A stretch of DNA of 51,460 bases, the filler included, from Porpidia crustulata (Eukaryota), in NCBI GenBank assembly GCA_964255105.1. It is 2 parts of 2 records of this genome, joined end to end, with 100 filler letters (N's around TTAATTAATTAA, not from the genome) between each part and the next. Parts side by side here need not be neighbours in the genome. Positions count along the whole stretch, not along the records: positions 1 to 25,711 come from CAXUWE010000049.1; 1 more part is not named here. One strand, given 5' to 3'. The notes below the pieces were generated by a model, which worked only from the letters and a program-made list of their open reading frames with translations, did no database searches and had not been told where the DNA came from. Below are positions 3,661-34,849 of the stretch, one piece after another. The position numbers and the translations under genes were made by a program. Position 1 is the stretch's first letter, and each line of letters begins with the position of its first letter.

Positions 3661-3752
3661 GTTCTCACCCCTCACGGACCATTCAATCTAGGGTTAGGCT
3701 TATATCTGCTAGTCCTGGCGTGCAGTAGGGTGGTCCGATGAGGGGTGAGAGC
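3661..3752 (+). repeat. Telomere-motif hairpin element, copy B
   Basis: 3661-3684 pairs with 3728-3752 (24 bp, one A bulge, 3 G-U); inner CTAGGGTTAG/CTAGTCCTGG 10-bp stem. Confidence 0.85.
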
Positions 3753-3890
3753 AAATATAGATCTAGCTTCTTAGAGTTAGCTCGTCCACAACTACTCTGC
3801 ACTGAGTGACTGGCACTCGAATCTCCATCAGTACCTAAGCACAATCGTAGGATATCGAAACTACCTGATTTACGTATAACTTCTAAAGCC

Positions 3891-4838: not shown

Positions 4839-4993
4839 TGCGTGGCAATTATTACAGTTAATTTCAGCGAAGGCGTCAAGAGGAGGTCATTGCTAGCCTG
4901 AGTAATCTAGAGGCATGAAATGCCGCGTGGTCTAACTAAATCTAAGGCCTACTGTAGGCTCTAATCATAGTGTGATGCTATCTATGAAGATGG

Positions 4994-7466
<2,473 letters not shown>

Positions 7467-9218
7467 ATTGGATTTTGTTCAGTCTCAAAATTTAGTCATC
7501 TGTAGAGGAAAGATTTGAACTGGCAGATATTCTTCGAAAAGGAAATAATCAGTCGTATTCATCGGACTCAAATAAGGGAAAGAAAATTCCAACTTATTCC
7601 AGATATACAGTTGTAATATTTTGTACTGGAGTAGAAGAGCACCGTAGGCACGTTTCTGACGTCTTAAATTGGTACCGACGCAAGACACATGAGAGGACGT
7701 TGCGGGGTGCCAATTTATGTAGCCTGGGGCCTAGCTTCTAGGTATCTACCTTAAGGTATCTCCGCATTAATATAATTCTTGTTCTGCAGTCCAGCATCTC
7801 AGGAGCAGCTCTCCTTCCCGATACGGACTGACTGTACGACAGCATGAAATATTCATGATAGCCTCATTCTTAGTTAAGCAAAACACGACGCGTTCTTTCC
7901 ATGTACTTAATGGTACACAAGAAATGGGCTATTGGAAAATAAACCAAACTGATACGCATGCTTTGGTGCTCGAAAACCGTTAATCCGGCTATCCATGAGT
8001 ATCATGCATGCGAATTCGCCATTTGTTTCAATGATTGGAATCTTCCTATCTCTACTTTCTCTTAATACTTGACTCACCTTTCTGTTACCATGATTTCCTG
8101 TTAGATATCTCGCGTCGCAACCGCGAATCCGCATATTTTCTACGTGATTCGGGCATGAAATAACTTCATGATAAGATGCATTGTCTTCATGCCAGAAGCC
8201 CACGTCTGCCATGGTTTCCATTGCACTTACTGTGTTCCGTGCAAGAATATTTTCACGTTCCCATGTACGGCTATGCTAATTGTACTCGACCAAAATAGCC
8301 ATCACGGTCAATCTTCGCCAAGACGGATTTTCTATACGTACATCAATTTAGGTCTAGCATCAAGCTTGGGCTTTCTTCACCAAAGAAATCGAGTAGTGGG
8401 ATAGTCGGTGTTGGTATCGAGGGTATTGGCATACGTTCGCTTCTCCCGACGTCTTCAATCCAGAGATATCACGGGTTAGATAGATAGGGGCTAGGACCGA
8501 CCTTTATATTCAGTCGCCAAGACGAAATGTCAATCTGGCTTTGATTTACTCTGTAATGATCCCTTTGCTGTGTCTTTTTACACGATTGCCGACTTGGTTT
8601 GGAGATCATGCGTCCCTCTCTCTTTGCTTCCTCCTTCTGTCCTTTTCTTCTCACTATCAGCGACAATCCGGTCAAAGTAATCGTAGGCACGAAGCTCAGC
8701 AAGCTCATTCACAAGCAGAAGCATCAAAAGCCTTTACTACGGAGTCTGATTTCTTTTTGAGCGATTACGTCTTGATATACAGGTACAGTAGCGGCGACAG
8801 CTTCAGCGGCACCTGCTTTAGACGGGGCCTATCGGGTTTATCTTACCCGCAAATGAGGCGGGAGGAATTGAGAGTTCAAGAGATCAACGGATCTGAGATT
8901 AAGGCGTTCGGATCACGGAATAGTGATTCCAAGCTCTGCTCGGGGAAGGGAGGAGACATCTAGGCTCGAAATAATCAACACCTGTCTGTAACACAGGAGT
9001 CCCAAGAATCTACCATAAGCGGAGCATGGAGTCAGGATTGATCTAGGCATCAAGCGTATCAATATAGTATTTTACCCTTAAACTATCTCTACCGAAGTGT
9101 AGCTCTACAATGTACTATCCTACGTTTGGCGTAATCATGATTCGTCTATGGAATGCACATGTATATCAGGTTACGCATCGTATCCATTTGGTCTTGCCAA
9201 TTGTATGCGCAAGCGGGC

Positions 9219-11437
9219 TTACTTGGATGGCGTGAAGGGACTTTGAACCGATCCATACCTATATGCGGATCTGTCAGCTAGATATCTTCATATCCACGAG
9301 CTCCTCGACAAAAGGGTCTTACCCCTGTGGACACTGCTTTCCCAAAGGCGCGCTCCCACTCCTCATGTAACAAATTTTCGCATCCGCACACGCTTGACTT
9401 GTGCAATTTGGCGTCTTTACACTCATCTTGCCCTGAAAGCCATTGAACTTCGACACCAAACTCAGATCCTTCGACATGGCCTCGGTCACCGCATGCCAAT
9501 ACTTGGCGTTCAACGGTGAAGACTTTGGCCAGCCAATGTTGTACGCATCTCTAGTCGAGTACTCGAATCGGTATGTCGGTCCGCTGGATGTACCATTGAG
9601 TCTGGGAAAGCTATTAACGTCGGAATACCAGGTATAGGCCTCGTAGATTTCGAAAGAGCCAGTGTCCACTTCATACATACGGAAGCCACTGTTGAGATTG
9701 GTGAGTGGTGTGACACTAGGACCAATCCAGCCAGGGGTAAGTGCACTGGCAGAGGTGCGAGCGGTGCCGTTATTCGAGTAATATATCATCACCTCATCTT
9801 CATGAGTGTGACCGAAGAAAATATTGGCAATGACGTGAGGCGAGTATCGATCGACAATCTGATAGAAAAGATCGGTGGGATTATCCAAAGGGTTCGAGCC
9901 GTCCCAGCCGGTCAGGACGTGGCCGATGATCCAGACTCTCTCATGGGCGTCTTCGGCGGCTTGAAGTTCTTGAATGAGGAAATGGAGCATGCCTGAGACA
10001 TCGGGGTTCGTCGTGTTGATATAATTGAGAAAGTTACTTCGGTACCAGAAGTCTGTGTTGAGCGTAATGATACGTAGACCATAATGATTCTGTACAGAGT
10101 AGGCCCCGTAGTGGGTCCTCGCTTGATTCGCAGTGGTAGCGTTGATCCAGCCATCATGCTGCCAAAGGCCTGCAACATGATCGTAATTCCAACTTTGCTG
10201 CTGACCGAGAGGTCCAGGCAGACTATGAGGCGCATCAATCGCTTCAGGATTGCTGTCGTGGTTTCCGAGGGCAGCGAATACCGGTCCACCGATGTACTCT
10301 TTCAACATACCAAATACGCTCGTCTCCGCGTATTCTATGGTAGAAGATATCTAAGCATGTACATATGAAGGGATAAAGATCATTGTAAGAGGAAACATTA
10401 CCTGTGTAGGATCGGGACAGCTGGTTCTGTGAGTCGTGTGAAACAAGGTCTCCGGTGTATATAGTCCACCCAATTTGAGACTTGTCTTTCTGTGTGCCTG
10501 TCAAAGGACCGATTGCTTGCAGAGCAGCCAGCGCCAGATAGTACGGCGTATCACACTTAAAGGAGCCATAGAGTGGTGCAGGCAGAGAAATCTGTCCAGC
10601 TCCCAAACCCAAAGCGTGCACATTCGTCCTGCAACAGAAGCTGGCGGAGCAATTGGCTTCACTGGCGGCGCTGTATCTGGGATCTATGTGGAAGTCCGAT
10701 AGATGGAGAACTTTGATACGCTTCCCGCTGGCCTTTGGCGCAGAAGCGTTGGCTGGCTTTGCCTTAGGAAAAATACCTGTCGCATTGAGAGGCAGCGTAG
10801 TAGGTAGAGGGCAAAAGGTCTTGCTTAGATCATTGCAGATATATCTGCCATCGAGCCCGCTGACGTCCGCAAAGGCTAGAACTTGAGTCCAAATCGCACC
10901 AAAGCTTCCCGCTGCATACTCGTCCACGCATGACGCATTCGAAGCGAAATGATACTTCTGACAAAGGCTGACCATTGCATCAGGAACCTTTGAAGGAGCA
11001 ACCCGAGCAGCAAGCTTTGCAACACTCAACGCAGCTAAACATTTGGAACAATTTCCACTGATCCCACTGTCTCCAATGATCGCAACAATTTCGATAACGA
11101 CACTCTGAATAATCGCCATGGCAGCGGCATCGGAGATATTTGCCACGGGCTTAGGGTAGTAAATCGGGTCATCATCAGTGGTAGGAATGGTCTTGGGGTT
11201 AGTGAGATTGAGGGGGAAAGTGATGTTGAGCACTGGATCGTACAAGGCCGGTTGGGGTTCTTGAGTCGCAAGCGGCGGTATGTAATAGGATGAAAAGGCT
11301 GAAGTAGGAAAGCCTGCGGTAGCGGTGTAGGCCAAAGGGCCTGGAATCGATTCACTTCCCTGCGATTGTACAGCAACGATGAGAGCAGAGAACGACAGCA
11401 GTCTTTCCGATACAAGTGTAAGTTGACTTGAGCGCAT
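9219..11437 (-). CDS. Secreted acid sphingomyelinase-like metallophosphoesterase with saposin-like Cys-rich N-terminus
   Basis: Motifs HLSDFHID, YTGDLVSHD, LGNHD, IIGH, FFGHTH; introns 10335-10401 and 9259-9322; probable start MRSSQL at 11437. Confidence 0.9.
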
Positions 11438-12089
11438 CGTGGGTCCAATCGTAGAAATCTGATGTAGGGGGGTGACCGCAGAAGATTGCAGGGAAAAGAG
11501 AAGCTGCTGCAGCCCAAAGAGAAGCAATGTTGCGCCATGTTACTGCAGCAGGTAGCTTCCTCTTATATAGGTAGGTACTACTGCACACAATGTCACGATA
11601 TGATTTTACTTTCTATAGGATCTTCACGGGGAGGGGTGTTAATCATTCCAGATTGACGTACGGATGAAGGACGTGTCTACTAGGAAAGTGATCTATTCGG
11701 GACCTGTATGTGAACGGCGCATATCAGCCAATCAGACCAGCACGCTGACACGCTTAGCCCAACCATCACCAAGTAGTCTTCTCATCTTTTATACTACTCC
11801 ACGATATGCTTGATTATTGTTGTCTTGGGTTGTTGAGAAAATTCTTTGAAACAGAACCAGAGGATAGTCGACGCATACTCAGAAGCACAGTGACATGGGC
11901 ATCTACCACCATTTGCTATTGCCTGCTGATTCCGCACTACATATCAAAGTTTTGGTTGCCATATCAATACGTCAAGGAACAGAAACCAAATTTATGAACA
12001 CTAAGCTATTCGTCATCCTACGCATTTATTGCGTCCGGGCGATCATCGTGAATTGGTTTTGTAATCCCACACACACACGTGGGACAACG

Positions 12090-13500
12090 TCATTTTTCCG
12101 GATTATCATTAGGGGTTTCAGCAATTCTATCGTCCAGGTCAGCACCAAAAGCAGCTTATCAGGATACAGGACTACATACCTGAAGACCAATTTCTTATTA
12201 CCGCTCTTCCGGTTCATCAGTCGTTGTAGGGCACCTTCAACACCTCGAAGTCCCTCTGGAACAACCTCGAATGGATGGCCTGTCAATCTTTTCTCATGCA
12301 ACAGTCGTCCAAACATCGCGGCCCAAATGAACCCAAAGTCCTTGGCTCCGTGCTCCTTGTCTTCGTGGACGCAGCCTACCCTGAGGACAAATATTAGCCT
12401 GAGAGAGCAAAGGCAGTAATAGAAACGTTACCATATTTGCTTGTACTCAGCAAAGGCTTCCAAATATTTCTTCTGGCCATCCAGTATTCCAGTCGTGCAT
12501 GTGTATTTAGCATCATTCTTCCCTACTGCGCTTGAAATATAAATAGCGCTTTCAATACTAGGGCTCGCGTCAAATACGTGGCGACATATTTTATCAGACA
12601 AGGCCTGACTGAGATCTCCTGAAATAGTTGGGCTTCTATAATCTAGTACCACATCATACCCCACAGATCTCGCGAAGTCCGCGGAAGCCCCGGCAATCCC
12701 GATGATGGGTGATATGGACGGGTTGAGCTTGGCCAGCTTGAGAGCGAAGGCCCCAACAGCGCTGGAGGCCCCATTAATTATCAGTGGAGTGGGCTTCGAC
12801 ACTTTATCCCACGGACAAGGTAGCTGAAGAATACGGAAGAGGCCTACGGCCGCAGTATACGCTATGTCTTTAGATCAGTGAACTATCAACAAAGATAATG
12901 AAACTGATTGAAAGGGTTCCGTTACCTGCGAGAGGTATAGTTGCGGCTTCCTCGAAGCTTAGAGATTCTGGAATAAGGAAGACAGATTGTTTCTGAACAA
13001 CCGCGACTTCTGCATAGCCACCACCTTTCGTGTTCATTTGGTGGAAAGCGGCCACCCGGTCTCCAACAGTGAAACCATTTACATTCTTGCCGACAGCATA
13101 GACAATACCAGCAATGTCATCACCTTGATTGAGCCGGCTGTTCTATGGGACGGAACGAGTATACATATTAGTGGTCTATTGACTGTTCCATATCACCCCG
13201 AGCGACTCACAAAGTAGGCTGGCCCTGGATGTTTCCAATCCTGCGATTGGGTCAGTTGTCGATACAACCAAGTATGTCAGAAAAAGGCCATGGAATTTCT
13301 GACGAGTTACTTTTGGGTTTGCACCAGCCACAACAACTTGGATTAGCAACTGATCGTCGTTGTAGGTCCTGCAAATGAATGAGATACGAAGCCTCGAGGG
13401 TCACAATCTGCAAGAAGATAGAATCTTACGGGTATGGAATATCTTCTATCTCTGCTCGGACCCACGAAGGGGGGTCAGAAGTGACAATGACATTTTTCAT
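12090..13500 (-). CDS. Medium-chain dehydrogenase/reductase, trans-enoyl reductase/TOXD-like, multi-exon
   Basis: Exons encode GANPK-DWKH, FTVGDRVAAFH, LSFEEAATIPLA, IINGASSAVG, KKLVFR; ATG at 13500, stop 12090-12092. Confidence 0.85.
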
Positions 13501-14396
13501 GGTGATGAAGATTGCGGCTCGACGAGGAAGGTTTGAGTACGAGTCAAGTGGGTAAGATGGTGGGAAACTCGCAGCTGAAAGATGAATATGGTATTCGCAT
13601 TATACGGCTTCTTATAGGACATATTCCAAGATATAAGAATGATAGGGATGCTGCTTTGTAAGACTAGGTAATAACGTAGATACCTATAGTGAAGCTGACA
13701 AATGCCGAAGCGTAAAGTGAGGTGGGCTCATCTAACGAAACGCGTTGTTGGGAATATACAAACTAAACAAAGGCCTATGAATTGAGAGGAGGAGATTTAA
13801 ATTCGAGCTTGCCCTGCGCCTGTTCACAAACATCCATTTCCCGGCGAACCTGTATATGACTGCGCGGTCTTAGAGTCAAAATGCTCTATAAACCTGATAG
13901 GTTGACATAATTCGAGTATAGAAGAAGATCGACCATTGCGTTTTCCACTTTTTGAGGTTATATCAGCAGCCTGCAGCTTTGGCAGCAGAAGCAGTAGGCG
14001 TTGATGCAGATGCGTCGTGCTGACTGTGTCGAACGATGGGTCATCATCTCATCGATACCAAATTCCCCTCAAATCTCTGTCTGGAAGTGCATCCCTTCGT
14101 GAGCGCCTCCAAAATTCATGACGAATCAATACATGCAGTAGTGGAGAAGCCACTTCATAGTTGAGAGGTAGAGATAGAAATTCGCGGTTAAAAAAACAAT
14201 TGGGACCTTAAAGCTTTTGAAATTTTGATATCTTATAATCATGACCTATTTAAATTTCAATCACGTCCTTCAAGCACTGTCGATTTTCGAGAGGACGATG
14301 ATAAGTAATTAGATAGAATTTGCATAAATTCCTGATAATAGGAGCATCATAATTGATAGGATTGCATTTTCTTCAACCACGAGCTACCTCTAGCCG

Positions 14397-14470
14397 TACT
14401 CCCAGCGGACTACTCCACATAGGGTTAGGGTTGTATCCACTAGACGGGCGTGGTCCGTTGAGGGGTGAGA
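14397..14470 (+). repeat. Telomere-motif hairpin element, copy C
   Basis: TACTCCCAGCGGACTAC (14397-14413) pairs with GTGGTCCGTTG(A)GGGGTG (14450-14467), 17 bp, 4 G-U; loop contains AGGGTTAGGGTT and CTAG. Confidence 0.85.
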
Positions 14471-14587
14471 AGGAAAATCGCGTGGTTAGTTACAGACAAT
14501 TTGTCCAAGCGAATCGCTTTTGCGTCCTTGGTCGTAAGGTGGCATCCAGCTTTCTGATAGAAAGATTACTGCGACTGCGGTAATCTA

Positions 14588-16660
14588 ATGGCCACTGCTG
14601 TCCATTTCCTGCCCAGTGCTCTCCTCAGCCCCCTGCCAATACCCGTCTTTCTATGCCCCCTGCTTAGGAAATTCCCATCGGTTTCGCTAATTCCTCGAAA
14701 ACTCAATAACCACAGCTCGAAATCGCAAAGGCGCAGGTATCAGACTGAGTCCGCCAAAGCGCAGACCCACGCGCTGCAAACCCCTCCAAATCTACTTGCT
14801 CTGCTAACATCGTGCCCGGGTTGTGGAGCTTTTACCCAGACCGTGAACCCTGAAGGGGCTGGCTATTACAATGTTACTCGGAAGTCTGTGAAAGCGTTTC
14901 TGGCTCGGAGCGAGAATGGACAACTCGGAGAAGCAGAGACTTTCAAGGAAGCAGTCGATCACGCGAATCGGGACGTACTGCAACAGCTGGGTATGCCGGA
15001 TATATCTGACGCCAAAGCTGTTGAGCAACGGCAATTGTTTCTTCACGACCGACATGTGACTGACACCCTGAGAGGATCTATGGGCTCAGAACATGTAGCG
15101 ACACCCGTATGTAATCGCTGTCATAACCTACTAAATCACCATACTGGAATTCCAATAATCCATCCGACTATAAATTCTATCCAGGATATGATCTCCGAGT
15201 CTCCATACAAGTACAATCACATATACCACGTCTTAGATGCAGCAGATTTTCCCATGTCGTTGATTCCTCAACTGCAGAAGCACCTTGAATTGACAGCGCA
15301 GAGATCCCAAAATCGTAGAGCTAAAACCCAAAGGTTCTACCATGGAAGAATGGCCGAAATGAGCTTTATCATTACGCGCGCCGACCTCTTGGCGCCGCAG
15401 AAAGAGCAAGTTGATAAATTGATGCCTTACCTCACCGAGGTTCTTCGGGATGCATTAGGACGCTCTGGGGCAGACGTCCGTCTCGGAAACGTGCGATGTG
15501 TTAGCTCCAGGAGAGGTTGGTGGACGAAACAAATCAAGGACGAGATTTGGGATCGGGGAGGAGGTGGATGGATGGTTGGAAAGGTCAACGTGGGAAAAAG
15601 CAATCTATTCGAATGCATTTTCCCAAAGGGGCGCCAGGAAGATGTAAATTTCAACGCTTTACGGCGAAATGCCACAAAGATAGTACCAATTGATCCACAA
15701 TCTGATTCACCTCAAGATCTCCACGCTACGACAGCCCCAGACCAAGCTTTCATACCTTCTCTCGGCGCCAGACCATCGCCGGACCTACTACGAGGGCCCT
15801 TGCACGAAGACTCTCTCCTCCCTCCTGCCCCAGCCGAAACCCGATATCCCGTCATGCCCATCGTCTCCTCCCTTCCCGGCACAACCGTGGCCCCGATCCG
15901 CCTCCTCTTCGGCAGCGGCAAAGGTGAATTAATCGATCTTCCTGGTCTCTCGCGCGGCAACTTGGAAGACAATGTCTTGGACGAGCGCAAACTCGATCTC
16001 GTCATGCGCCGTCGCGTGAAGCCTGAGCAATTCGTCCTTAAACCTGGCCAATCAATTTTGCTTGGTGGAGGCCTGGTGCGAATCACGCCTACGTCACAGG
16101 ATGTTACCACACTGGCATACCCCTTTGTGCCGCTGAAAGCACATGTAACATCCACGGAAAAGGCGGCAGCGATTCAGAGCCAGGAACAATCCTCCGGCAT
16201 CCCATCGCTCCTGAAACCCGGTATTGGAGCGTTCATAGCCTCCGCCGGTTCCTTTCCCCTCAAATGGGACGTCACCAAAAAGCGCGCGGGCCCGCTCACC
16301 TCCTCCTCGGCCGGCCGCCTGCATACAAAGATCCTCCCCTTCATCGTCTACTCCACCGATATCCTTATCGAAGGCTGCGGGTGGGTGGAGCTGGTAGCGC
16401 AGGTGCGGAAAAAGGATATTGAGTCACAGCTAGTGGGATACGAGGACCGAGGCCAAGGGGTTGCGCCTTTGGACGTCCCGGCAGTGGAGATCTTCACGCC
16501 TCACGGGGGACACGTTGATGCGCGGAGTCCCATGAACGGCTGGTTGTTGGGGGGGCCGAATACGGCATCAGCGGGCAAGAGGGCCGCAAGGCCGAGGAGA
16601 AGCATGAAGGGGGTGAAGAAGGCCGAGAAGATGGCAAAGCATCGTGGGCGCGGAGATTAG
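14588..16660 (+). CDS. GEP3: Mitochondrial circularly permuted GTPase Gep3/Mtg3 (YqeH family)
   Basis: 690 aa; CPGCG...CNRC zinc finger, DAADF, TRAD, GKVNVGKS, LIDLPG. Confidence 0.9.
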   Translation: MATAVHFLPSALLSPLPIPVFLCPLLRKFPSVSLIPRKLNNHSSKSQRRRYQTESAKAQTHALQTPPNLLALLTSCPGCGAFTQTVNPEGAGYYNVTRKSVKAFLARSENGQLGEAETFKEAVDHANRDVLQQLGMPDISDAKAVEQRQLFLHDRHVTDTLRGSMGSEHVATPVCNRCHNLLNHHTGIPIIHPTINSIQDMISESPYKYNHIYHVLDAADFPMSLIPQLQKHLELTAQRSQNRRAKTQRFYHGRMAEMSFIITRADLLAPQKEQVDKLMPYLTEVLRDALGRSGADVRLGNVRCVSSRRGWWTKQIKDEIWDRGGGGWMVGKVNVGKSNLFECIFPKGRQEDVNFNALRRNATKIVPIDPQSDSPQDLHATTAPDQAFIPSLGARPSPDLLRGPLHEDSLLPPAPAETRYPVMPIVSSLPGTTVAPIRLLFGSGKGELIDLPGLSRGNLEDNVLDERKLDLVMRRRVKPEQFVLKPGQSILLGGGLVRITPTSQDVTTLAYPFVPLKAHVTSTEKAAAIQSQEQSSGIPSLLKPGIGAFIASAGSFPLKWDVTKKRAGPLTSSSAGRLHTKILPFIVYSTDILIEGCGWVELVAQVRKKDIESQLVGYEDRGQGVAPLDVPAVEIFTPHGGHVDARSPMNGWLLGGPNTASAGKRAARPRRSMKGVKKAEKMAKHRGRGD

Positions 16661-17512
16661 ACTTTGGGCCACACTTCGCCGTTGGGATTAGATTAGCATT
16701 TCTGATCTGGAAAATTCGAGTCTCGGATTGAATCCACGCCAATGCTTCGAAAACTCAGGATCCACAAGTTGGGCCGCGACCGCTCCAGTCCCCCACGTGA
16801 ACCTCGAGTCTCGATGCCGAAGTTCCCCACCCAACTCTACTTGCTTGAGCTTCCAGTATGTCGCAGACGCTTCGCCCATGGAGGTAGAAAGCTAGTGGAG
16901 ACTGAATTATTTGCACGACACAAGGGACACAAGGAGATGGATCGCATGAACACCGGAACCAGTACTTCCCAAGGCCGATGTGCAACGTAGATTCATCGCC
17001 AGCGACGTAGCGCATTACTTATTATTGACAGTCGAGAAGAATTCAACGATGAGCTTTATCCCGAAGCTCAGGATGCGCTTCACGACAGGAAGGCGTGAAT
17101 AAGTACTTGGCTGCGTCTTTGGGCGCTGAGAAAGGATGCTTGTAAGGGTTTCCTTGGGTTCTATTGGAAGTGAAAAAACATGGGTGAAGTTGAACATCGA
17201 TCAGGGTATGAGTGGTAGAAAGTTTAATCAAAAGATTTGCAATTTCAATCATCGCAAACGAAAGTATTAAATCCTAGATATAATCCTAGATATGGGACAC
17301 TCTGTTTGCCAATGTATGCAAAATATGCGTACTCTAGATTGCTACGCGTACTGTGATCCAGGTACGTGGTTTGCATCCTATGATGACTGTGCGTCACTCT
17401 AATGCAATCTCACTCAGACCCACCAGGGGGCGGCTAGGGTATAAAGTATCCTTCGTAATGTCGTGAACTCATGAAGGCGTTGCGAAGGGTCGCTCAATGA
17501 CTCGAAACTCGG

Positions 17513-18364
17513 TTATTGGCTCTCATGATTGCTTGACCCCGCTCGTTCCAAGAGGCTGGGTGACACGACGTCAAGTGCGTCTTTGTGATGTCCCACCAAG
17601 ATATCGTCGTCCAGCGGCCGCCAGACCCATTCTCTGCGGCGCTTGCGCCGTCCGTGCACTGGAGTGGCAGAGCCGTCTTCTTCTTCGATGATGGCACGTC
17701 TCTCTTTTATTGCGGCCTCGGTCCTATGACCATCGCTATCCGAGTCCAATGAACCGAATATCGTCTCAGCATCATTTGTCGGTATGGTCTCTTCTAGTGG
17801 TTCGTGGAAGAGCACTCGTTTGGCAGGTGGGAACATCCTCCTCGGCGCACGGGCTGAAGTGGCCGAAACGTGCCGTCTTGGTAACGGGCTATTGCGGAGG
17901 ATGCTGCGAGCCCCCAGTGGGAGGTTGTAAGGAGTTGTGCTAGGAAAGGGCGATGTGTGGCCGGAGGCCGAGGAGCTTCCTGCTGAAGTGGATGACGGTG
18001 TGGGCTGATGGTGAAGTGGTGCTCCTTCGATTCCCCGCGAACCGGGAGAGTAATGTGAAGGTGAAGGTGAAGGTTCGAAAGCGTTGACGTGAGCGTTGCG
18101 TATTGTTGGCGAGTCTGTTGAGAAGCTTAGATTAGGGCCCGGCTTCGTCCTCTGTGCTGATGGAGGTGATGTCTGGAGAGAGAGTTTGGGCCGCTTTGCA
18201 GTTGCCACTGTCACAGGTGGCAGTACCGAGATCATCATATCTCCTTTTGGCACTTGTGACTGTAACATCGATTGTGGATCCTGCGATGTTTGTACTGTCG
18301 AAGGGGAAGTATGTGAGCAGGGTTCTTTGACCTGGTGGTGGAGGCGAGATGGCAAAATAAGCAT
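17513..18364 (-). CDS. Hypothetical Ser/Pro-rich disordered protein
   Basis: Long ORF, probable ATG at 18364; motifs KRPKLSLQT, RSILRNSPLP, KRVLF, KRRREWVWRPL. Confidence 0.65.
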   Translation of the reverse strand: MLILPSRLHHQVKEPCSHTSPSTVQTSQDPQSMLQSQVPKGDMMISVLPPVTVATAKRPKLSLQTSPPSAQRTKPGPNLSFSTDSPTIRNAHVNAFEPSPSPSHYSPGSRGIEGAPLHHQPTPSSTSAGSSSASGHTSPFPSTTPYNLPLGARSILRNSPLPRRHVSATSARAPRRMFPPAKRVLFHEPLEETIPTNDAETIFGSLDSDSDGHRTEAAIKERRAIIEEEDGSATPVHGRRKRRREWVWRPLDDDILVGHHKDALDVVSPSLLERAGSSNHESQ

Positions 18365-18831
18365 TGTGGTTGCAGTTGCCTTGTTCGCCCAGATGAGATG
18401 AGCTTGGTAGCACTTGCGGTTGTTAATGGATAATAGTAAGAATATGGCCCGGAGTTGCAAGAATAAGCCCAGACTACTCGGTCGGAGAGCAATTCGATCG
18501 CTAGGATCGGTTGGTAAGGCACGAGGGCAATTGATGAGCCGGGTGGCGGAGTTATCGAGCTACTCGTTGGGACTGTTGGGAAGACATGAGCGAACCGTGA
18601 GTTAGAATCGGATAGGCGATCGGTCAAAGACAGCCTGTGCCTTTCTCCAATTTAACATATACGATTTGTTTTGTCCGAGTTCTTAGTGTGGAGAATGGCA
18701 GATTTGTTGTAGAGGGAGTGGTTAGAAAGTCTGCGACTAGGCAGGTGTAAGACAATGACAGGTGGGATAGCGGATGGTAGAGCAGCTCGTTCTGGTAGTA
18801 GATTATGCGCACTCACAAGAGTGACAAGGTA

Positions 18832-19349
18832 CCCCAACTTTCAGGTTCCTGCCTCGCTTTTTAAATTTTCAGAATTTTTTTTTTCTTCGGATCCGAGGGT
18901 CAAAATCAGCTTTTCATGATACAGTGATCAACGCTTCGTTGAATATCGTTTCAAATGAGACAGATTGTAGATTACATGTAGTTCCATCTGTACACGCAAT
19001 CACATGAAATTCTAGCTTCATGTTGTTGATGTATAACTGATTTCATGATATGTACATCGTACAGCATGTCGCAAAATCGAAGTCTCGACTCATTTTTATA
19101 CACAGCGTGCTCACACAGCTTGACAGTCACAAGTTTTATGAAATCAGTATTACGTTAACAACACAAAGCTAGAACTGTATATAACTGCGTTCACAGATGA
19201 AACTATATGTAATCTATAATCTGTATGATTCTGAACGATATTTAATCAAGCGTTGATCACTGTATCATGAAAAGCTGATTTTAATCTCTTCGATCTAAAA
19301 AAAAAAAACTGAAAATTTAAAAAGCGAGACAGGAACCTGAAAGTTGGGG
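18832..19349. mobile_element. MITE/foldback element with about 220-bp TIRs, TA target duplication (Tc1/mariner type)
   Basis: TA|CCCCAACTTTCAGGTTCCTG...CAGGAACCTGAAAGTTGGGG|TA; arms align for over 200 bp; AT-rich; no ORF. Confidence 0.9.
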
Positions 19350-19639
19350 TACATAATTAAATGAAAAATGTATAATTAGGTCTCTGCTTAAGACTTAAAT
19401 TATATGCCACTGTGTACATACCTTGTGAGTCTGCTATGCTCATAGACTCTACGGCATGTTCGAGCTCCTTGTTATCTGCCCCGCTGTCTGCGTATCGACT
19501 TCTTGAGTGACTTGTACTCGTTATTGATGTCAGTCAGCGACTGGGTCACGTTATACGTTTCTGGGCAGATTGGCACATTGGAACCCAAGCACCACTCACG
19601 CCACCTACCAGTTCAATGGGTGTACCATACGAAACACAC

Positions 19640-19712
19640 CTCTCAATGGAACAGTAGGCACAGGGTTAGGGTTATTCCCACTAGTTTGGGCCTATTGTTC
19701 CGTTGAGGGATG
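19640..19712 (+). repeat. Telomere-motif hairpin element, copy D
   Basis: CTCTCAATGGAACAGTAGGC (19640-19659) pairs with GCCTATTGTTCCGTTGAGGG (19690-19709): 20 uninterrupted bp, 3 G-U; loop ACAGGGTTAGGGTTATTCCCACTAGTTTGG. Confidence 0.88.
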
Positions 19713-20120
19713 AATACGAGTGCTCTAAATTGATAGGCACGTAGGTCGTCGTTTTGACTTTTTCAACTATCGATCGGCAGCCCTACCGTATAAAAAGACT
19801 TGACATCAGGTCTTCTTAGAGTACTTACCTATCCACCTATCCAAAAGCGGACACCTCAAGTCACATGATCTGACTGTTCGCTTACCTTACCCGACAGATT
19901 CGAAGCAGTAGTGTGATTATCACTCATGATTGAGATAAAGTGACAACTTTTTCATGTTGTGCCTGTGCATCATTGCTTGTATCTGACCTGCTGCTGGTGC
20001 TTCCAGACCTTAAATTCCAGGCCACTCCACCTCTCGTGGTTATAGCCATCCGAGGCTACATCTTACATTGCATTATTCCAGACTTCCAGGTATGATCATG
20101 AATTTCAGCTCGGGCTCAAT

Positions 20121-22197
20121 ATGGCCAATTGGGAAGGCCCGGCCCTCAAAAGGCATGATAAAAGGACAATCATACATTTTGTAAGCACCTATCATTTGTA
20201 CTTCTCTCCCTCTCTTAGGTAATTTTCTAATCATCAATGGTGATAAGGATTACGACTGCTTTTACGCTGCCGTATTCGAAAGAGAGGATCCTAAGCTCCG
20301 CTTTCTGCCACTCGCGGTACAACAGAAACAGATTATAGTCACGTGCAATTACGAAGCTCGTCGTAGAGGCCTGCACAAGTTGCAGCTGGTCAAGGAGGCA
20401 AGGAAGATGTGCCCTGAAGTCATCGTGATGCTCGGTGAGGACCTAACGCGCTTCCGAGATGCTTCCAAAGACAACTACGATTTCCTCAGGAATTATTCAT
20501 GGAGCAAGAAGGTTGAACGCTTGGGTTTCGATGAAGTGAGTTACCGTCCTCGTTGGCCAAGGGTTTTCTTCCCAAGCACAAGGACTAATCAGTCAGGTAT
20601 TCATGGATGTCAGCGATATGATTGATTACAACGTTGACCTTCTCAATTTCAACCATCTAGCGGCATCCTTCTTCAATCTGGATCGTCACGACCCAACTGT
20701 TGGATTTGACTTCGATGCCACGGAATATTATGGCCATATCTACCCGGAGACTTTGCCGCATTTCAGTGGTCCATCCCCAGCATCGATATCGCCGGGTTCC
20801 AGGGATTCGTATTCTCTCTCTATGCGACTCCGACTTGGATCTCATCTTTCCCGCTATCTAAGAAATCGACTCGAAGAGCAGAAAGGCTATACCTGCACTG
20901 TTGGTGTTAGTACAAATAAGCTCTTATCGAAATTGGTGGGCAACCTCCATAAGCCCAAAGGCCAGACAACGCTTGTCCCCCCATATGTTACCATGTCAGA
21001 GAACGAGGACAGCAATGTCAACCAATTCATTGACGGCCATGATATTGGCAAAGTACCAGGAGTTGGATTTAAAACTGCACAGAAGATCAGGGGCTTTTTA
21101 CTAGGGCGTGCAGCTGCGTTTGATACAGGCCTGGTTTATGGGCCAACGAAGGAGAATATTACAGTCAGTGCCGTTCGGAGACACCCGAACGTCAGCCTGC
21201 AATCTCTAGAGAGACTCCTGGGTGGTGCTAGGGCGCCTAAGGGTATCGGCGCAGTGATTTGGGGTCTACTCCAAGGCATTGATGAATCCGAAGTGGCAAA
21301 AGCTAGAGATGTGCCTCAGCAAATCAGCATTGTCTGTCACTCCTGGATAATAACTCGCAACGTCTTATCTAATATTTTCAGCAGGAGGATAGCTATCTCA
21401 GACTTGACACGATGGAAGAGCTCAAGAAAGAATTGACAATGCTTGCACGAAGCCTGATTAAACGGATGCGCCTAGACCTCACCTCAGACATCAACGATGA
21501 CGATATCGGGCTGCTCAACGGCGATGAAGAACAGCTGAGCAAGAACGATGCCGAAATACCAAGAAGATGGATCGCGTATCCTCGAACACTAAGACTAACA
21601 ACCCGCCCACGTCTGCCGCTAAATCCTGATGGAACCCGTTCGAGAACTTTCAACCGCATCTCTCGATCGTGTAACATGCCCTCAACGATCTTCAGCCTCG
21701 CCAATGATGTGGACGTCTTAGCAGCTCAGCTGGTGACTGATACTCTTATTTCCGTGTTTCGCAAGCTACACCCGGAACGATCTGGCTGGAATCTGAGTCT
21801 GGTCAACCTTTGCGCCACTAACATGACTCTCGTTGCGAACGACAGCAGGGACGGAGTTGGGAGGAGTATCGAGAAGATGTTCAAGAAGCAGGAGGACTCC
21901 CTGAAAGAATGGAAGGTCGAGGATGTTGATATCGCACCTTCAGGTAATGACTTCGGGATCCAACAGCAACCTCCCACTTCGGTGAACAATGAAGTCTTGA
22001 CGGCCAATCTTCAAGCCGGCGATTATTATGGTTCCGAGGATGTCCGAGACTCGACACAGCAGATTAACGACAACGACAACACATGGAACAGTGAGGACGA
22101 TGCCCTGGACCCTGGTGTCGCTTGTCACATTTGCGATGCAGTGATGCCACCGTTTGCGATGGCTGCCCATGAGCGATTTCACGCAATGCCAGACTAG
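20121..22197 (+). CDS. Y-family translesion DNA polymerase (iota-like) with C-terminal UBZ finger
   Basis: Exons 20121-20180, 20248-20535, 20597-21331, 21385-22197; IIHF-DYDCFYA, TCNYEARRRG, ERLGFDE, NKLLSKL..HKPKGQT, CHIC..HERFH. Confidence 0.9.
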
Positions 22198-26375: not shown

Positions 26376-29300
26376 TCATAATTTTTTCCTCTTCGGCACA
26401 ATAAAGGGATTTACTTCCTTCTGTTTCATGCTTGGCGGCCTCACATGGTTGTTTGACGGTAACGGTCTCCTTGGCTCGACCCCTTTCTTTGGTGGGAGCT
26501 CGCGTCCATTCTCATACTTGCCACTGGAGCTGAACGAAGGATCACGACCGTTTCTTTCCGCAGCGGGACCAGTAGGGACATTTGTAGTATGTACATCAGA
26601 GACTTGCCTCGGCTCCATAGGCTGAGAGCGTGAGGAGGTGTTCTTCTCGTCGATAACCGGGGACCGAATGGGGATGCTGTTGTATGAGGGAGCGCGGGGT
26701 GTGGGGACAACGTTGGAGCTGTTGCAGAGTGGCGGAGTTGCTACAGATGACCTCCGCTCCGCTTTGGGCGCTCGCATAGGAGGCGACGGTTCACGCTTTC
26801 TCTTCGGCGGCGCCTTTTGGTTTCCTATTTTTGGCTCATCTCTGGTTGGTGGCGGACTCTCACGCGTAGCGCGCACTGTGGGTACTGATTTGGCATGATC
26901 TCCTAATTGCTTCTTAGCTTGTGTCTCGGGGGCCCACTGCATTTTACGCTTATGGCCAGCCTCTTTTCTTTTCAACATCTCCTGCTCTCGTTTCGGAAGA
27001 GGCTGAATACTTGTACAGAGTCTCGAAGAATGACCCCATTGACCGCAATCGAGGCAACGTTCAACTGTGCAGGAGTTTATCCGATGGTCAACGCTTCCAC
27101 ATCGAAAACACGCGTCTTGAATCTTAAGCTTTGCTTCGACATTGTCGCACATGGAGGTTTGATGCGCCGCACTACCACAAACCGAGCAATTTGCATTAGA
27201 ATTGAGTCCGTTAGATCCCCCAGATGGCGCATTGAATTGAGGACTTGATTCTTCCCTCATCGTATGTGAAGGAGCATCAACCTTGGATAATACATTTGCA
27301 GACAAAGCTGAACTATCCTTATCACCTATGAAGCGATCGACAACTGGTGCGTCCCACATATCGATGTCGTTATTTGTCACCACTGCGCTGGACGAGGCCT
27401 GGCCGGGGACGACGGCATTCACGTTCAAAAGAGGCTGCTCCAGTAGACCAAGAATGTCGCCACTGGTGTAGAAGTTGCGCGTTCTAGCATCTTGGATCAG
27501 TCGACCCCAGAATTCACCTTGTCTTAGAGATTGGGCGTTTCCCAAGACCCATAGCGACGATTTTGCTCGAGTGATGCCAACATTCATTCGACGTATGTCA
27601 GACAGAAATCCTATTGTTCCATTCTTCGAAGCTCGAACACAGGAGAAGATGATCACTTCACTCTCTCTTCCTTGGAAGGCGTCTGTCGTATTGAATTCCA
27701 CCGTCGTGAGTATAGAGTCACCATATTTTATTGCGAAACGTGATCGAAGCTCTCGAAGTTGGCTCTTGTATGGTGTGATGATTCCAATTTTGTTACGAAA
27801 GTCATAACCCTTGCAATCCGTGACCAGGCGATCGAAAAGCTTCAACGCTACTTCGACCTCCCCAAAATTGACCAAAGAATGGCCGGATACGGTCCGGTGT
27901 ATGCCTTGAACGTCAAAGAAGCGGTAAGGTCCAAGAATTGCACTTTGATGCCATGGCTGAGTCCTCAACGACACCATCTGGGGACCATTGAGGAGCTTTC
28001 CGTCGTAGAAAGCCCTGCTCGGAAAAAAACTAATCTCAGGGTGCATGCGATATTGAGTGTCAAGAAGATGAACATCATTAGCATGGTTGGCTTGCATTCG
28101 AACAAATAAACTCTGCTCGTACTGGAACCGAGCAGCTTCTCTAGAAAGTACTGTTGGAGGCAGTTGTTTTGGATCGCCAACCAAGATGCATTTTGAACAT
28201 CCATACTTCAAGGGGATCAGAGCACTAAGCTCGATTGATTGGGCTGCCTCATCGATGATGACAGTTTCAAACTCTATATTGAGTGTCTGAAACATTTCGT
28301 GACCACTACCGCTGAGCGTAGCACAGATGACATGAGCATTGTCAAGAATTTCCTGCTGAGTCTTGCGTCGGATTATTTCGGCGTCCCTAGCTACTGTATT
28401 ACCACTGTCACGCACGGCATCAATTTTGGTGCTCAGCTGTTGTTTCTTTCTTTTGAGTAATTCGATGTCTTTTTCTTGCTCAGGAGACACCGAACTCCCA
28501 CTCGCTTTAATATCGCCAACTTTACCGAGAAGCATACGGAGTTCCTCGCTCAGACTTTTGTGTGCTGTCATAACTTGTCCAAGCTCATCTCCAGCGGTCT
28601 TTTGCATTCCTGTAAGACGAAGTTTTGCATTCACAAGCTCTTCGAGAGTTACATCAACGACATTGGTGTTAATGGCATCGCTTCGACCAAGGCGGATGAC
28701 CGACAATTTTCTGAATTCGCCGTTCAAGGTCTTAACACCTTCCTTGAATCTCATGACTAATTCATCCACTGCGGCATTGCTGGGTGCACAAATAAGCAGC
28801 TTTTTTGCAGCAGAAGGTCTAGCGCTTATCTGAGCAACATGGGGAGCAGCAATAGTTATGCCTTTGTCACCAAAATTGCCCGTCATCAGCGCGCCTACGA
28901 TAGCAACGATAGTCTTTGTTTTCCCCGATCCTGGCGGTCTACTCAACAGTAATTAGTATGATCTGTGACAATTGATTGGAAATATATGACTTGCCCTTGA
29001 ATCAGCGTAAATGCATCATTGTCAATTGCAGATCTAACGGCCTTGGCCTGCGCTATGTTGATTTTGTAATTGGCGACTAGTGGGCCCAGCTGGTTCTCAT
29101 TGTAACTAAGTAGCGGCGACGGTTTAGCTTTGATTATTTCATCACAGAGGTCGAAGTATTTCAAGCCTTGCAGTGCGCCGTACTCTCTCTCCAGTGGGGT
29201 TATCGAAGATATCTTGATACCATAGAGAATAGCATTGGGCACCATCAAAGCTAATAAAGGGACAGCGGAGTTGACACGATAAGTAATTTCCATCGAGGCC

Positions 29301-32300
29301 TTCTTACGGGTAATCTTGAATACTCTTGCAAGGCAATGCAGCTGATCGGGCTGTGATGCAGGGGATTCTCCTTTCGACATGAGTACTATATCTGCTTCAC
29401 TAATACCGATATCTTTACCCTCGGCCATTGGCATCGCACTTGCTACTTCAATAAAAGAGTCGACACTCATACGGTTGGCAACTTTGATTTCGAAGGACTT
29501 AAAATTACCTTCCTCTTTTGATTTCAGAAATCCTTGCCAAGCTTCAAGAACTAGGAGAGGTTGAAAAATGTTTTGGTAATCCACGGGATTCCGAAAGGTA
29601 TTCGCCACCAGACTGTAGTCATCACGGTCAGAGCCTGGAGGAATATCACCTCGGTGAAAGAAATCCCAGCTAAGAATGGTTTGGTGAAGGGAGGTAAGAT
29701 CGGGGGCCAATCGTGCGCGCATATCCTTAGCAGACCTGAGTTGTCGAGTCTTCTTAACGGGTCCCTGGTCTCTGAGTTGCTTCGATTTGCTTGCATGGTA
29801 GTCTTTAACAGCATCAGACATCTTTGATGGCTTCTCGGACTTGCCGAAAAGCTCGTGATCGAGATCATCATCTGATTCGGATTCTGATTCCGAAGAGACC
29901 ATCATCCCAGAGCCTTTGGGAGCATGGTCTTTGCCTACTATACCAATACTGCCGAGCGCCGGTGTCTCCTTGAACACGGCTTTACTCTTTTTGACTTTGA
30001 GAATCTCCTCCGCATCGCGCTTCTTCTTGGCTTCTCTCTCCTTTTCACGTTTCTCGCGAAAGCTTGCTCGTTCGTCTGCAACCTGAGCTTCTGTTTTGCC
30101 CCCTCTCACCAGATGTGGCTCACGCCTCGAAGCCTGGTGTGATCGCTCTGCCTGTTGCCTCTTCAGCAGCTTGACGGAACGGCCGAACTCGAGTAGGTCC
30201 CTATCAAGCTCAGGTGTCGATCCGTATTCATCTTCGTCAGATATGTCGACCACGGATTGCGATGGCTTTGCTCTGGCCTTCCACGCCACTAAGTCGATAG
30301 TCCCGGATTTAGTACCACTTTTCTTCTCCTGGGCTGAATTCGTGACTCGGCTTTGATTTGACGGTACGCCGGCTCCCGAGTGCACTTGTGATCTTGTATC
30401 CGACAGCTCTGTTTCTATGTCCACGATTGAGATTGGATGCCCTACATTTGTCTCAAGAGCTCTGGCAAGTTCAGCTTTGTCTTGTGCTGACAAAACGGTT
30501 CGCCCCTGAGAGGCCCCTTGAATTACGTTCTCAAGAAACTTACACGAAGGCTCAGCGAGAGTCATTTTACGGTCGCTGAGACGGTCCAAGATCTTTTTGG
30601 TTAGCTTAATTGAAATCTCTGCTAAGAATATATCGCGAAGTCTGAGCCATTTGATCAATGCTTCCATGGTCCTGGCCGGGTGCTTCAACAATTCTTTACT
30701 AGCCAGTTTATTGTCGGAAATACTCCCGCCTCCCTCTTGTTTTATCCACACAGTCGAATCAACAGCACTGGCAAAGATGTTATAATGATCAAAAAAGCGT
30801 TCCGAAAATTGCATGGTATCTCTGCAAAATTCTTTCATGACAGTGTTGTCAGTCGCGCGTGTCCGGCCCCACTCTTCGGTCATCTCATAGATGACTCGTA
30901 GAGCTTCCCATTGGTACTCCCAGAAGCTTTCAACCACTTCAGTTTCCCGGAGACCTGAGAGCCTACGCGTACGAAGAATACCACTCTGTGAGTCACACAG
31001 AATATCGATCACGTCCGTGCAAGTTTTCAGCATTCGGGGGCACGAAGCGTAACTCCTGTTTTGTGCTATCCGACGGACGGACCAGGAGATGCTGCTCAAC
31101 GTTGTTTCGAAAAAGTGATTTAGCAAATGTCCGACAGCTTCCTTCCGTGCGGATTCCGAGCTGATGCTCTTGATAAGATTAACCCCAGCCTCGTACGTAC
31201 TAGCATCAGGCGAGAATAAGGAGGCAACAAGCGCAACAGCTGTGTCTGAATGACGAAATAGCTTGTCAAGATCGCTCGGGTCAAAATCGTTGATCCGTTC
31301 AAGCATCTGACACACCAAGTGCGTAAGATGCCCAAAAGTGACATTGAACTGGCTCTTTTCTTTTGAATACTTATCCTCTGATGTTGTCTTGAACCTTTCG
31401 ATTCCAGTCAAGCCGTTGATACCGGTCAGTGCAGCTCTGGCTACAACAATATTTCCGCGATCGAGGTGGTTGACTATAGCACTCCAGATGGTAGGAGAGT
31501 AAGAGGAGAACCCCGATGGTAGCGTTTGATCTTGTCGGAGAGCCTCTTGGTCTGACCTCAAGTACTTACATTCTAATGCAAGAGCGCCTTTTACGGCTCT
31601 CATGCATGGTTCTTCCAGTGCTAAGCGGAAATTGCTCGAAATGGGTAAGGAAGGCGTTGCAAGGATTTGTTTTACGTAGGTTCCAGCCACTTCCAATGTC
31701 TCGGCAGCTACGACACGTCCGACGGCCTTAAAGTATGCGTCTTCCTTATTGCAATTGGCCAATGTCCAATTGAGTACACCAAGACCGATTCGAAAACACT
31801 CAATTCTAGCGTACATCGGAAATCTATCAGCTTGTAATCGGTCCATCAGCTGGAACGTAAGTGAGCGACAAGCTTGGGCTTGGTGCGCAGTGTGGAGAGA
31901 TGCCATGAATGGTTTGACCCATGATAGCATGTCCTTAAGTGGAGAAGCGTCATAGTCGTCATCTTCGTTGGCTTCCTGTAGAAATTTATCGTATTGCGGA
32001 TTATTGAAAACTTGTTCAATCACAGTTGTGGGTGAGATCGCTCCCATGGACTCCCAGAAGTCCTTTGGTGCAACTTCAAGTAGTCGTTCGATTGTTTGAA
32101 GTAAGAACCTTAGACCAGGAGTGTCGTATTGCAAATGCTCAAGGGACAGTCTGAATAGGTCAACGTCCATGGCTCGCAGCGAGTGTGTTATAAGATCGCT
32201 GTCGAGTCTCTCGATGATCAATCTTACACCGCACCACACCCGCTGAATTAAGGTTGAGTCTGTGATTGCCTCAGATGACAATCTGAGAACTGCAAGTAAC

Positions 32301-33172
32301 GAGTCTCGCACGGCAAAATCAAAGTCTTCTTTCGAGAGATGCTTTCGGTACTTGGACCAAGTGTGCAAAGCCCAGATACATCGCGAATTGTTTTGATCGA
32401 AGAGAAATCTCGTAGCTGCCGGTACATAATGTGCCACTGCAAGTCGCTTATTTGTTTGAACTAGTGCCAATGGTTCTTGCAGGTGTTGCTCGACAAGATC
32501 ATCACATACAAGGAATGCCTGGCATGTGAGGGCTTCGAATAAGGAGAGCTGATCAGATAGATGAAGGACATCTCTGCCTCGGCGGCGGATCTCTGTAGCT
32601 TTCAGCGTCTGGGTTGCACTTTCAAGCCCTCGTTTGATTCTCTGTATATCCTCATCGTCGATAATTTTGAAAAAGGCAGAAACGTCTTCCTCATCGTAAT
32701 CACTACACTGATCAGCATCTGTCAGATGGTTCCTGGATACATCCTTCGCGGGCTCTAGGACAGACTCACTGCCTCATGCGTTCGATTTTCTGATGCTTGG
32801 ACTTGTAGTAAGACACTATGCACGTATCGCACTTTCCCAACTGCAATTTAATTTGTTCTCTCAGATACTCCTGATGTGGAAGGACATCTTCACCATCGTA
32901 GGCGAATAGTTTCAAGCATTCAAATGCGAGATCAAGACGATGCCCTATAGAAGATGGGATCGAATCTTCGATTTTAATACGGGCTTGTTCCTCCTCCAAC
33001 AAATCTTGCCTAGCTGGGATTTTGGCATCTTCCAAAGAACAGAACCAATGAAGCTCAGGAGGAAGATCTTTGAGCTCACTTTTGTAGGAGACTACCATCA
33101 GCATACACCGTCTTTGAGGGCATTTCTACGGAATTCGAGTGCTCACTGAAGCTTGGATAATATTTCCGCCAT
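26376..33172 (-). CDS. SEN1: Sen1/senataxin RNA-DNA helicase
   Basis: Sen1 N-terminal region (LHWFC), IQG-PPGSGKT, CAPSNAAVDE, IIDEAAQ, VGDPKQLPPT, QYRMHP, TTDAFQGRE, RRMNVGITRAK; ATG at 33172. Confidence 0.95.
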
Positions 33173-33958: not shown

Positions 33959-34007
33959 CTACCTTAAGGTAGCGTGTAAGTCTTTATTCTACTACGTAGT
34001 AGTCATA

Positions 34008-34066
34008 CTCTCAATCAAACATCCAAGGTTTTAGCCCTAACCCTAAGTTCGATGTTCGATTAAGGG
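34008..34066 (-). repeat. Telomere-motif hairpin element, copy E (divergent, minus strand)
   Basis: Minus strand CTTAATCGAACATC / GATGTTTGATTGAG 14-bp stem with 2 G-U, enclosing TTAGGGTTAGGGCTAAAACCTTG (inner TAGGGTT/AACCTTG). Confidence 0.7.
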
Positions 34067-34849
34067 CTGTGTTCGTACGAGTAACCCTATCGAAACAGGC
34101 CTCACCTCATATATTCAGGGATTGAATAAAAGATGAGCTGGCCACTTCATTGAACCAATTCTATACTTATGCTATTGGTAAGATACGTATCATAGTATGT
34201 AGGGTTATGGCTTGACTAGCTAGCGGATCGCAAAATTGAGTACGCCTCCCCCCAGTCGAGTAGATGAATGAGGCTCTGCCTATGTAAGAGCGCGGTCGGA
34301 AGCCAAAAGCATTCCGACTTTGGAGCACATCACTAGAGATACTGGTGACCTATTGATTGCATCGTGGATCCCCAAAGCTTTCTCCACCCACAGTCCCTTT
34401 ACTGAACAGGCTTCAAGGCTCTACTAGATTACAGTGACGATATAAAGATCTCTTCGTTACAGTTGACTTCAGATTTACTGGCGTGTTGTCCAATCTCATA
34501 TAACTATGAATCCTCGTTCTAAATGTCGAGAACCTGAATCACGACGGGAGGTACCAAGGCAAGCACAAAAATATTGAGTCTGATTGTTGACGAACGGCTC
34601 GAGCGAAGTGAAATATGTTATAGCTATAGTATGAAGTCAGGGCTACCTCGCTTTTATCCCTGGCATAAGACGCCAAAAATCAATGAACCCCTGTTGTCGG
34701 TCCCAAGACTATGAACTCATACGCCGGCCTATCAGAACACCGACCGCCCAATGCGGAGAACCAACGTAAGTCGCTAACATGAAAGGAGATGGAGGTATCT
34801 ATTCGCTAAGGTGTATTTACAGTGTCAAGAAGGCAGAAGGAGTGCAATG

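Follow-up and report, generated by a model that had tools for sequence, protein, structure and literature searches.

Telomere-repeat hairpins of a dispersed repeat family lie ahead of genes in Porpidia crustulata and may be constrained on their G-rich strand

We found that the nuclear DNA of Porpidia crustulata carries a family of scattered repeats that can form hairpins, have a conserved telomere-repeat centre and are located ahead of genes; this is the firm part of our results. The copy at positions 19640-19709, here called copy D, is a member of a genome-wide family of imperfect palindromes of ~75-95 nt. Five copies (A to E, with A cut by the start) lie in the window, the whole stretch of 51,460 nt that was analysed, which is ascomycete nuclear DNA by its atlas taxa and Pfam content. 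The explanation that we favour, with a probability of roughly 0.4, is that the hairpin is constrained on its G-rich strand, probably as RNA, where it would display UUAGGG repeats.

Copy D consists of a 20-nt arm, a 30-nt loop and a second 20-nt arm. Positions 19640-19659 (+ strand) pair with 19709-19690 without interruption, through 17 Watson-Crick and three G-T pairs (T19641-G19708, T19647-G19702 and G19654-T19695 in the pair list of the fold). This is exactly the 20-bp stem, with G-U at all three non-Watson-Crick positions, given in the preliminary description. Outward of the stem there is a mismatch, C19639 opposite A19710, and then two more pairs. The 5' arm was delimited from the sequence, the RNA fold and its pair list, and the 3' arm (19690-19709, + strand) from the sequence, nhmmer and the alignment. 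When the + strand was folded as RNA (19634-19716), its energy was -41.8 kcal/mol (z -7.15), and none of 200 shuffles folded as well; the - strand reached -31.5 kcal/mol (z -4.61).

The loop of copy D (19660-19689, + strand) carries AGGGTTAGGGTT. Its core, AGGGTTAGGGTTATTCCCACTAG at 19662-19684, was located by sequence, pattern search and contig depth, and comprises two telomere-type repeats plus CCACTAG. The CCACTAG that follows the telomere-type dimer is complementary to TTAGG(G), in the same columns in B and C as in D. A small apical stem is possible within the core, with one T-G pair invariant in B, C and D, and the consensus fold of these three copies pairs TTAGG with CTAG/CC. In the 3' arm, TCCGTTGAGGG is identical in copy C and differs by one base in copy B.

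The other four copies share this plan. Copy A (1-57, + strand) retains the core from GGTTAGGGTTATAT on and the 3' arm GGACCGTTTGGGGGTGGGAAC (nhmmer E 0.022; partial covariance model match at 1-23). Copy B (3661-3752, + strand) has a stem running from 3661/3752 inward to 3687/3725 around a core at 3690-3712, and its G-strand folds as RNA at -54.5 kcal/mol (z -6.30). Copy C (14389-14474, + strand) has its main stem at ~14397-14413 with 14450-14467 and its core at 14421-14443 (-36.4 kcal/mol, z -2.58). Copy E (33995-34073) is inverted, its TTAGGG strand being the minus strand; the stem runs from 34067/34007 to 34051/34023, the core extends from 34044 downward, and the G-strand fold reaches -26.5 kcal/mol (z -4.06). 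Copies B, C and E were each recognised by nhmmer, the covariance model and the RNA fold. The covariance model found copy E at E 0.012 on the TTAGGG strand, and E was not in its training set. Both nhmmer and the covariance model, the latter with filters off, recovered the same five places and no others in the window, copy A only in part and with weak E-values.

Each copy has the same conserved centre, AGGGTTAGGGTT followed by ~7 nt and then CACTAG, and the arms common to the copies relate to CCCTCAACGGACC and GGTCCGTTGAGGG(GTGAGAA). The motif GGGTTAGGGTTA, with at most one mismatch, occurred four times in the window, each time in 5' intergenic DNA, against 0.12 expected, and a longer pattern of core, CTAG and 3' arm gave three matches against none in shuffles. 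The stability of the hairpins is exceptional: of 5136 windows of 101 nt scanned over 51 kb, those containing B and D take the top two places in fold stability, and C is thirteenth among the distinct regions listed.

We observed arm-like motifs that lack a telomeric core close to copy A, at positions 90-245. CCGTTGAGG (176-184) is followed by its complement CCTCAACGG (233-241), an order that reverses that of the canonical copies, and a sequence resembling the 5' arm of C occurs near 95-115. They are perhaps decayed copies, or tandem ones, adjoining copy A. The region 60-310, which includes the arm-like pair and has no telomeric core, folds no better than shuffles (z -0.33) and was left out of the count of copies. 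Self-alignments of entire regions caught unrelated small palindromes and were not used.

To follow the family beyond the window, contigs of one public DNA run were aligned to positions 3600-19760 at 80% likeness. The cores attracted further contigs of this genome, ~1 extra on B, ~4 on C and ~11 on D, and the total contig depth at the core of D was 133.5, compared with ~11 for single-copy DNA. The paralogous contigs match the core at 19662-19694 and diverge leftward from 19629-19662 and rightward from 19675-19694. Since contigs pile up on the cores and are unlike outward of the arms, we conclude that the family extends across the genome and that its strongest conservation lies in the core. Pattern scans with core plus arm gave no matches in metagenome contigs, and scans for relatives gave none in prokaryote-genome or viral contigs. 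The sole metagenome match was to the core only, in a TARA marine contig (1089-1111, - strand); it lacks the flanking arms and was set aside as chance. The hairpin family is not in any Rfam family: a search of the whole window gave no matches at the gathering threshold, with far sub-threshold matches to generic hairpins on D and B only. In the full-text literature searched, which included parts of PMC13152902, PMC8214302 and PMC7952879, no account of a fungal hairpin family with a telomere-repeat loop came to light.

All five copies are located in 5' intergenic DNA, with the G-rich strand being the sense strand of the next gene. Copy A lies upstream of a GDE1-like gene. Copy B ends 139 nt before the ATG (3891) of a gene of the Sde2 family (Pfam Sde2), and copy C ends ~115-120 nt before the ATG (14588) of a GEP3/YqeH-like GTPase gene. 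Copy D is ~410 nt before the likely ATG of a Y-family polymerase gene, and copy E is ~890 nt upstream of the likely start of Sen1. B and E sit between tandem genes, and C and D between divergent genes. The orientation pattern is not significant alone, because orientation is informative for only B and E. Among the five downstream genes, three have roles on nucleic acids or in genome maintenance, namely the Sen1 helicase (26376-33125, - strand), Sde2 (3891-4838, + strand) and the Y-family (IMS) polymerase (20122-22197, + strand); the remaining two, the GDE1-like and GEP3-like GTPase genes, have no such role. With only five genes, this proportion is no evidence of a regulon.

This location bears on the main rival explanation, which we regard as a serious possibility. 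According to it, the element is a duplex DNA palindrome, a MITE-like or foldback relic carrying a pair of TTAGGG repeats to which a tandem-Myb protein of the Tay1/Teb1 or Tbf1 type would bind. It would act or persist as a promoter-proximal element, and the G-T skew described below would reflect chance and the choice of stem limits. Plant telo-boxes are short interstitial telomere-type repeats upstream of protein-coding genes. The hairpin family resembles them, and the promoter sites of Teb1/Tay1 and Tbf1, in having telomere-type repeats upstream of genes, here two in tandem. Proteins of the Tay1 family are described, in the parts of PMC7952879 drawn on here, as binding TTAGGG through two Myb motifs, with some members acting in transcription; Schizosaccharomyces pombe Teb1 regulates transcription, and Saccharomyces cerevisiae Tbf1 works upstream of snoRNA genes (PMC7952879). 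Tay1-family proteins bind two telomere-type repeats in tandem, and the sequence contains at least two tandem TTAGGG-type repeats upstream of a gene, as in sites of the Tay1/Teb1/Tbf1 type. Such a site in the core is putative. The position of all five copies in 5' intergenic DNA, with B and C ~115-140 nt before start codons, fits this explanation, as does the conservation of the core and 3' arm above all other parts. The hairpin family nevertheless differs from Teb1/Tay1/Tbf1 sites in that its repeats lie in the loop of a hairpin-capable palindrome of 17-25 bp, itself a dispersed repeat family, and in that the downstream GDE1-like, Sde2, GEP3, Y-family polymerase and Sen1 genes form no evident regulon.

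The same explanation treats the element as a transposon relic. Like fungal MITE/foldback elements and bacterial REP and Correia-type repeats, the copies are short, non-coding, multi-copy, intergenic and hairpin-capable. Unlike in MITEs, the conserved part of the family is the centre and not the termini, and genomic copies share the core, which is the opposite of a terminal-inverted-repeat transposon. By eye, no direct repeat that could be a target-site duplication was seen at the stem bases of B, C, D or E; this counts against a MITE, but is not a strict exclusion because the element limits are fuzzy. The window also contains a true foldback MITE of 524 bp at 18829-19352, with 56-nt terminal arms that are 95% complementary and 145-nt inner arms that are 83% complementary. 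This MITE, too, is multi-copy in the genome, and up to ~10 contigs align to it.

Short interstitial telomeric sequences are internal repeats inserted at repaired breaks, and their flanks are unrelated between sites. The hairpin family is like them in having internal telomere-type repeats a few units long. However, the arms and CCACTAG are homologous among the copies, which excludes independent telomerase insertions at breaks. We also rejected a Helitron end, as the homology runs past CTAG on both sides, and a telomerase RNA, as the element is multi-copy and the wrong strand is favoured.

We then compared the RNA energies of the two strands, a check proposed in the preliminary description, and the TTAGGG strand came out better in every complete copy. 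For the elements alone, the energies of the G-strand and C-strand were -54.5 and -43.9 kcal/mol for B, -36.4 and -21.8 for C, -41.8 and -31.5 for D, and -26.5 and -18.9 for E, so that the TTAGGG strand was more stable as RNA in 4/4 copies, by 7.6 to 14.6 kcal/mol. In random 101-nt windows the strand difference has an SD of 6.6 kcal/mol and tracks the G+T content (r -0.76). The four differences are not fully independent, because the shared G/T-rich core contributes part of each. For copy C the RNA hairpin is significant only on the TTAGGG strand (z -2.58, compared with -0.01).

With DNA parameters the picture changed. The strand differences were 1.3, 2.6, 5.1 and 2.1 kcal/mol, and copy C formed no significant hairpin on either strand (z +0.67 and +1.16). 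D and B gave significant hairpins with DNA parameters too (z -5.32 and -4.47). The smaller differences and the non-significance of C favour RNA over ssDNA, if the constraint on a single strand is real. They weigh against an ssDNA hairpin on the G-rich strand, which would serve the copying or moving of the element or form on the displaced strand at promoters, and which we consider improbable. The hairpins of bacterial REP and IS200/IS605 elements provide a model for the handling of such ssDNA. The multi-copy nature of the family, its conserved loop with less conserved stems and the significant DNA folds of D and B are all consistent with it. Against it, Pfam scans revealed no enzyme candidate in the window, and we know of no eukaryotic precedent for such ssDNA hairpins except Helitrons, whose end structure does not fit.

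The central claim of the preliminary description was that stem mismatches on the TTAGGG strand are almost all G-U, whereas neutral decay of an inverted repeat should give G-T and A-C about equally. It had also warned that the arms were delimited by eye, and this caveat proved to be the crux, since significance shifts with the stem limits. For a wobble-blind count, the TTAGGG strand was folded with G-U pairs forbidden, and the symmetric 1x1 and 2x2 interior mismatches in the core-enclosing helices were counted. This fold count is a single analysis of the four complete copies B, C, D and E. It gave 8 G-T, 0 A-C and 5 other mismatches (two-sided binomial p 0.0078). The neighbouring MITE, read on the + strand, gave 11 G-T, 13 A-C and 9 transversion-type mismatches, in agreement with the earlier remark that its arms show both kinds. 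Since this MITE lies 300 bp from D, its ratio of 11:13 indicates that neutral decay looks symmetric here. In this count the hairpin stems differ from the symmetric decay of the true MITE (Fisher test of 8:0 against 11:13, p 0.010). The explanation by a duplex palindrome leaves the 8/8 interior G-T transitions, set against 11:13 in the MITE, without a reason.

When G-U pairs were allowed, the enclosing helices held 15 G-T and 2 A-C, a count that favours wobbles by construction. In these helices copies B and C hold 4 and 5 G-U pairs, bearing out the statement that they behave on the + strand as D does. For copy E, the A-C mismatches of the + strand indeed become G-U on the minus strand, where there are three G-U and one A-C (C34065 opposite A34009) near the stem base. 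Copy E, which is inverted, thus shows the skew on its own TTAGGG strand. A mutational skew tied to replication direction was rejected on this ground, as E is inverted relative to B-D and yet skewed on its own G-rich strand.

The picture is less clear at the edges of the stems. Just outside the core stem of B, a 3x3 loop places C3658-C3660 opposite A3753-A3755, and if it is counted as three A-C mismatches the ratio becomes 8:3. On the G-rich strand, A-C mismatches stand at the stem bases of D (C19639 opposite A19710) and E (C34065 opposite A34009). A lenient wobble-blind alignment of the arms gave 10 G-T and 5 A-C (p 0.30), a result that suits the duplex explanation. The number of G-U pairs in the optimal fold of each strand, 10-11 on the G-rich strand and 7-13 on the other, did not differ significantly; the wobbles of the C-rich strand come from flanks and alternative pairings. 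Beyond the core stem of B (3653-3660 with 3753-3760), the CCC/AAA block is followed by 3-5 complementary bases, and on the C-rich strand this block extends the helix with three G-U pairs. Set beside A and C, the A-rich right flank of B seems to be ancestral and not a decayed stem.

Inside the clearly paired stems, then, the skew is complete, and both kinds of mismatch occur at or beyond the stem bases. The significance of the skew depends on the arm limits, because the counts range from 8:0 to 8:3 and 10:5. The proposed binomial comparison of G-U with A-C therefore had a divided outcome in the four complete copies, with p 0.0078 for interior positions and p 0.30 under lenient limits. The claimed G-U bias is significant for the interior (8:0) and is not significant once outer positions are included (8:3 to 10:5) or when G-U pairs are counted symmetrically on both strands. 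Taken together, the G-T skew in the four complete copies is suggestive and not established.

A neutral origin of the skew was also considered. By definition, a G-T mismatch goes back to a C>T or A>G change in the strand on which it is read, so that selection could be mimicked by a sense-strand asymmetry that is transcription-linked or RIP-like. Under this explanation, strand-asymmetric mutation would raise C>T and A>G on the non-template (sense, G-rich) strand, through transcription-associated deamination or repair or through RIP-like C>T changes. In our reading of the alignment, where the consensus gives a direction, five changes are C>T and two are A>G on the G-rich strand, which is the sense strand of the next gene in all copies. 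However, the 200-nt flanks have no G+T excess (0.491 upstream and 0.472 downstream), base composition being a weak proxy, and the MITE that shares this intergenic region has a symmetric ratio of 11:13. Known transcription-linked asymmetries are far weaker than 8:0. We therefore give this origin little credence.

To see whether pairing is maintained, we examined changes in the stems among copies. Two-sided changes occur in 6/18 outer stem pairs among B, C, D and E in an alignment fitted by the covariance model, which leans towards its own structure. Two stem pairs read C-G, C-G, T-G and T-A across B, C, D and E, which is the route of compensatory change through a G-U intermediate. RNAalifold on B, C and D alone showed a two-sided change in 2/27 pairs. 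The arms cross-pair between copies almost as well as within their own, the true assignment ranking 2 of 24, and the covariation is limited for this reason. Among A-D, conservation is higher in the 3' arm than in the 5' arm, and this hints that sequence is constrained, and not pairing alone. Overall there is some covariation, but it is modest. Stems kept through two-sided changes are left without a reason if the element is only a duplex palindrome.

Iron-responsive elements are dispersed cis-regulatory RNA hairpins in which the loop is conserved and the stems vary. The hairpin family is like them in its conserved loop, in stems that may partly be kept by two-sided changes, in its tolerance of G-U and in lying beside unrelated genes. 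Unlike iron-responsive elements, the copies are homologous by descent and not convergent, as their arms share sequence; the stem is also much longer and more stable, and transcription would have to be assumed. Precursors of Dicer-dependent, microRNA-like small RNAs would have a similar geometry, with a stem of ~20 bp in a total of 70-100 nt, and copy B has sub-threshold Rfam matches to miRNA precursor models (20.5 and 21.2 bits, with gathering thresholds of 70 and 91). These matches fall far short of the threshold and are of the sort that any long hairpin gives, and miRNA families conserve the stem and vary the loop, the reverse of what the contigs show here, making such precursors very improbable. 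An H/ACA snoRNA was rejected, as by eye there is no pocket and no ACA box.

The preferred explanation, a hairpin constrained on its G-rich strand, proposes that the element functions through its G-rich (TTAGGG) strand, folded as a single strand. Its likeliest form would be a sense-direction RNA, either a 5' leader or a promoter-associated transcript, in which the stem would present a UUAGGG-UUAGGG loop to a binding protein. Here we infer transcription, the identity of the folded strand as RNA and not ssDNA, and any binding partner. The distances of D (~410 nt) and E (~890 nt) from the next start codon are far for a 5' leader and count against this explanation. The functional single-stranded hairpin put forward in the preliminary description is accordingly plausible in part: the 8/8 interior G-T transitions and the RNA energies in 4/4 copies speak for it, and the small number of copies (four), the A-C mismatches at or beyond three stem bases and the symmetric G-U count speak against it.

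A more specific proposal, which we hold to be rather unlikely as a whole, is that the family comprises lineage-specific regulatory hairpins, as RNA or displaced ssDNA, that act as a telomere mimic and recruit telomere-repeat or G-strand binding proteins to gene starts. A dimer of the telomere G-strand would then be displayed in a loop on the 5' side of many genes, and the stems would be kept by compensatory evolution via G-U intermediates.

If the skew dissolves in a full census of copies, the family would be an ordinary palindromic repeat carrying a Myb-type site, which would still be of some interest as a way to spread such sites to promoters. If the strand-specific constraint holds genome-wide, the family would represent a dispersed, repeat-borne structured element in a fungal nuclear genome, and telomere-repeat recognition would be tied to the 5' regions of genes by a folded single strand and not by a duplex site.
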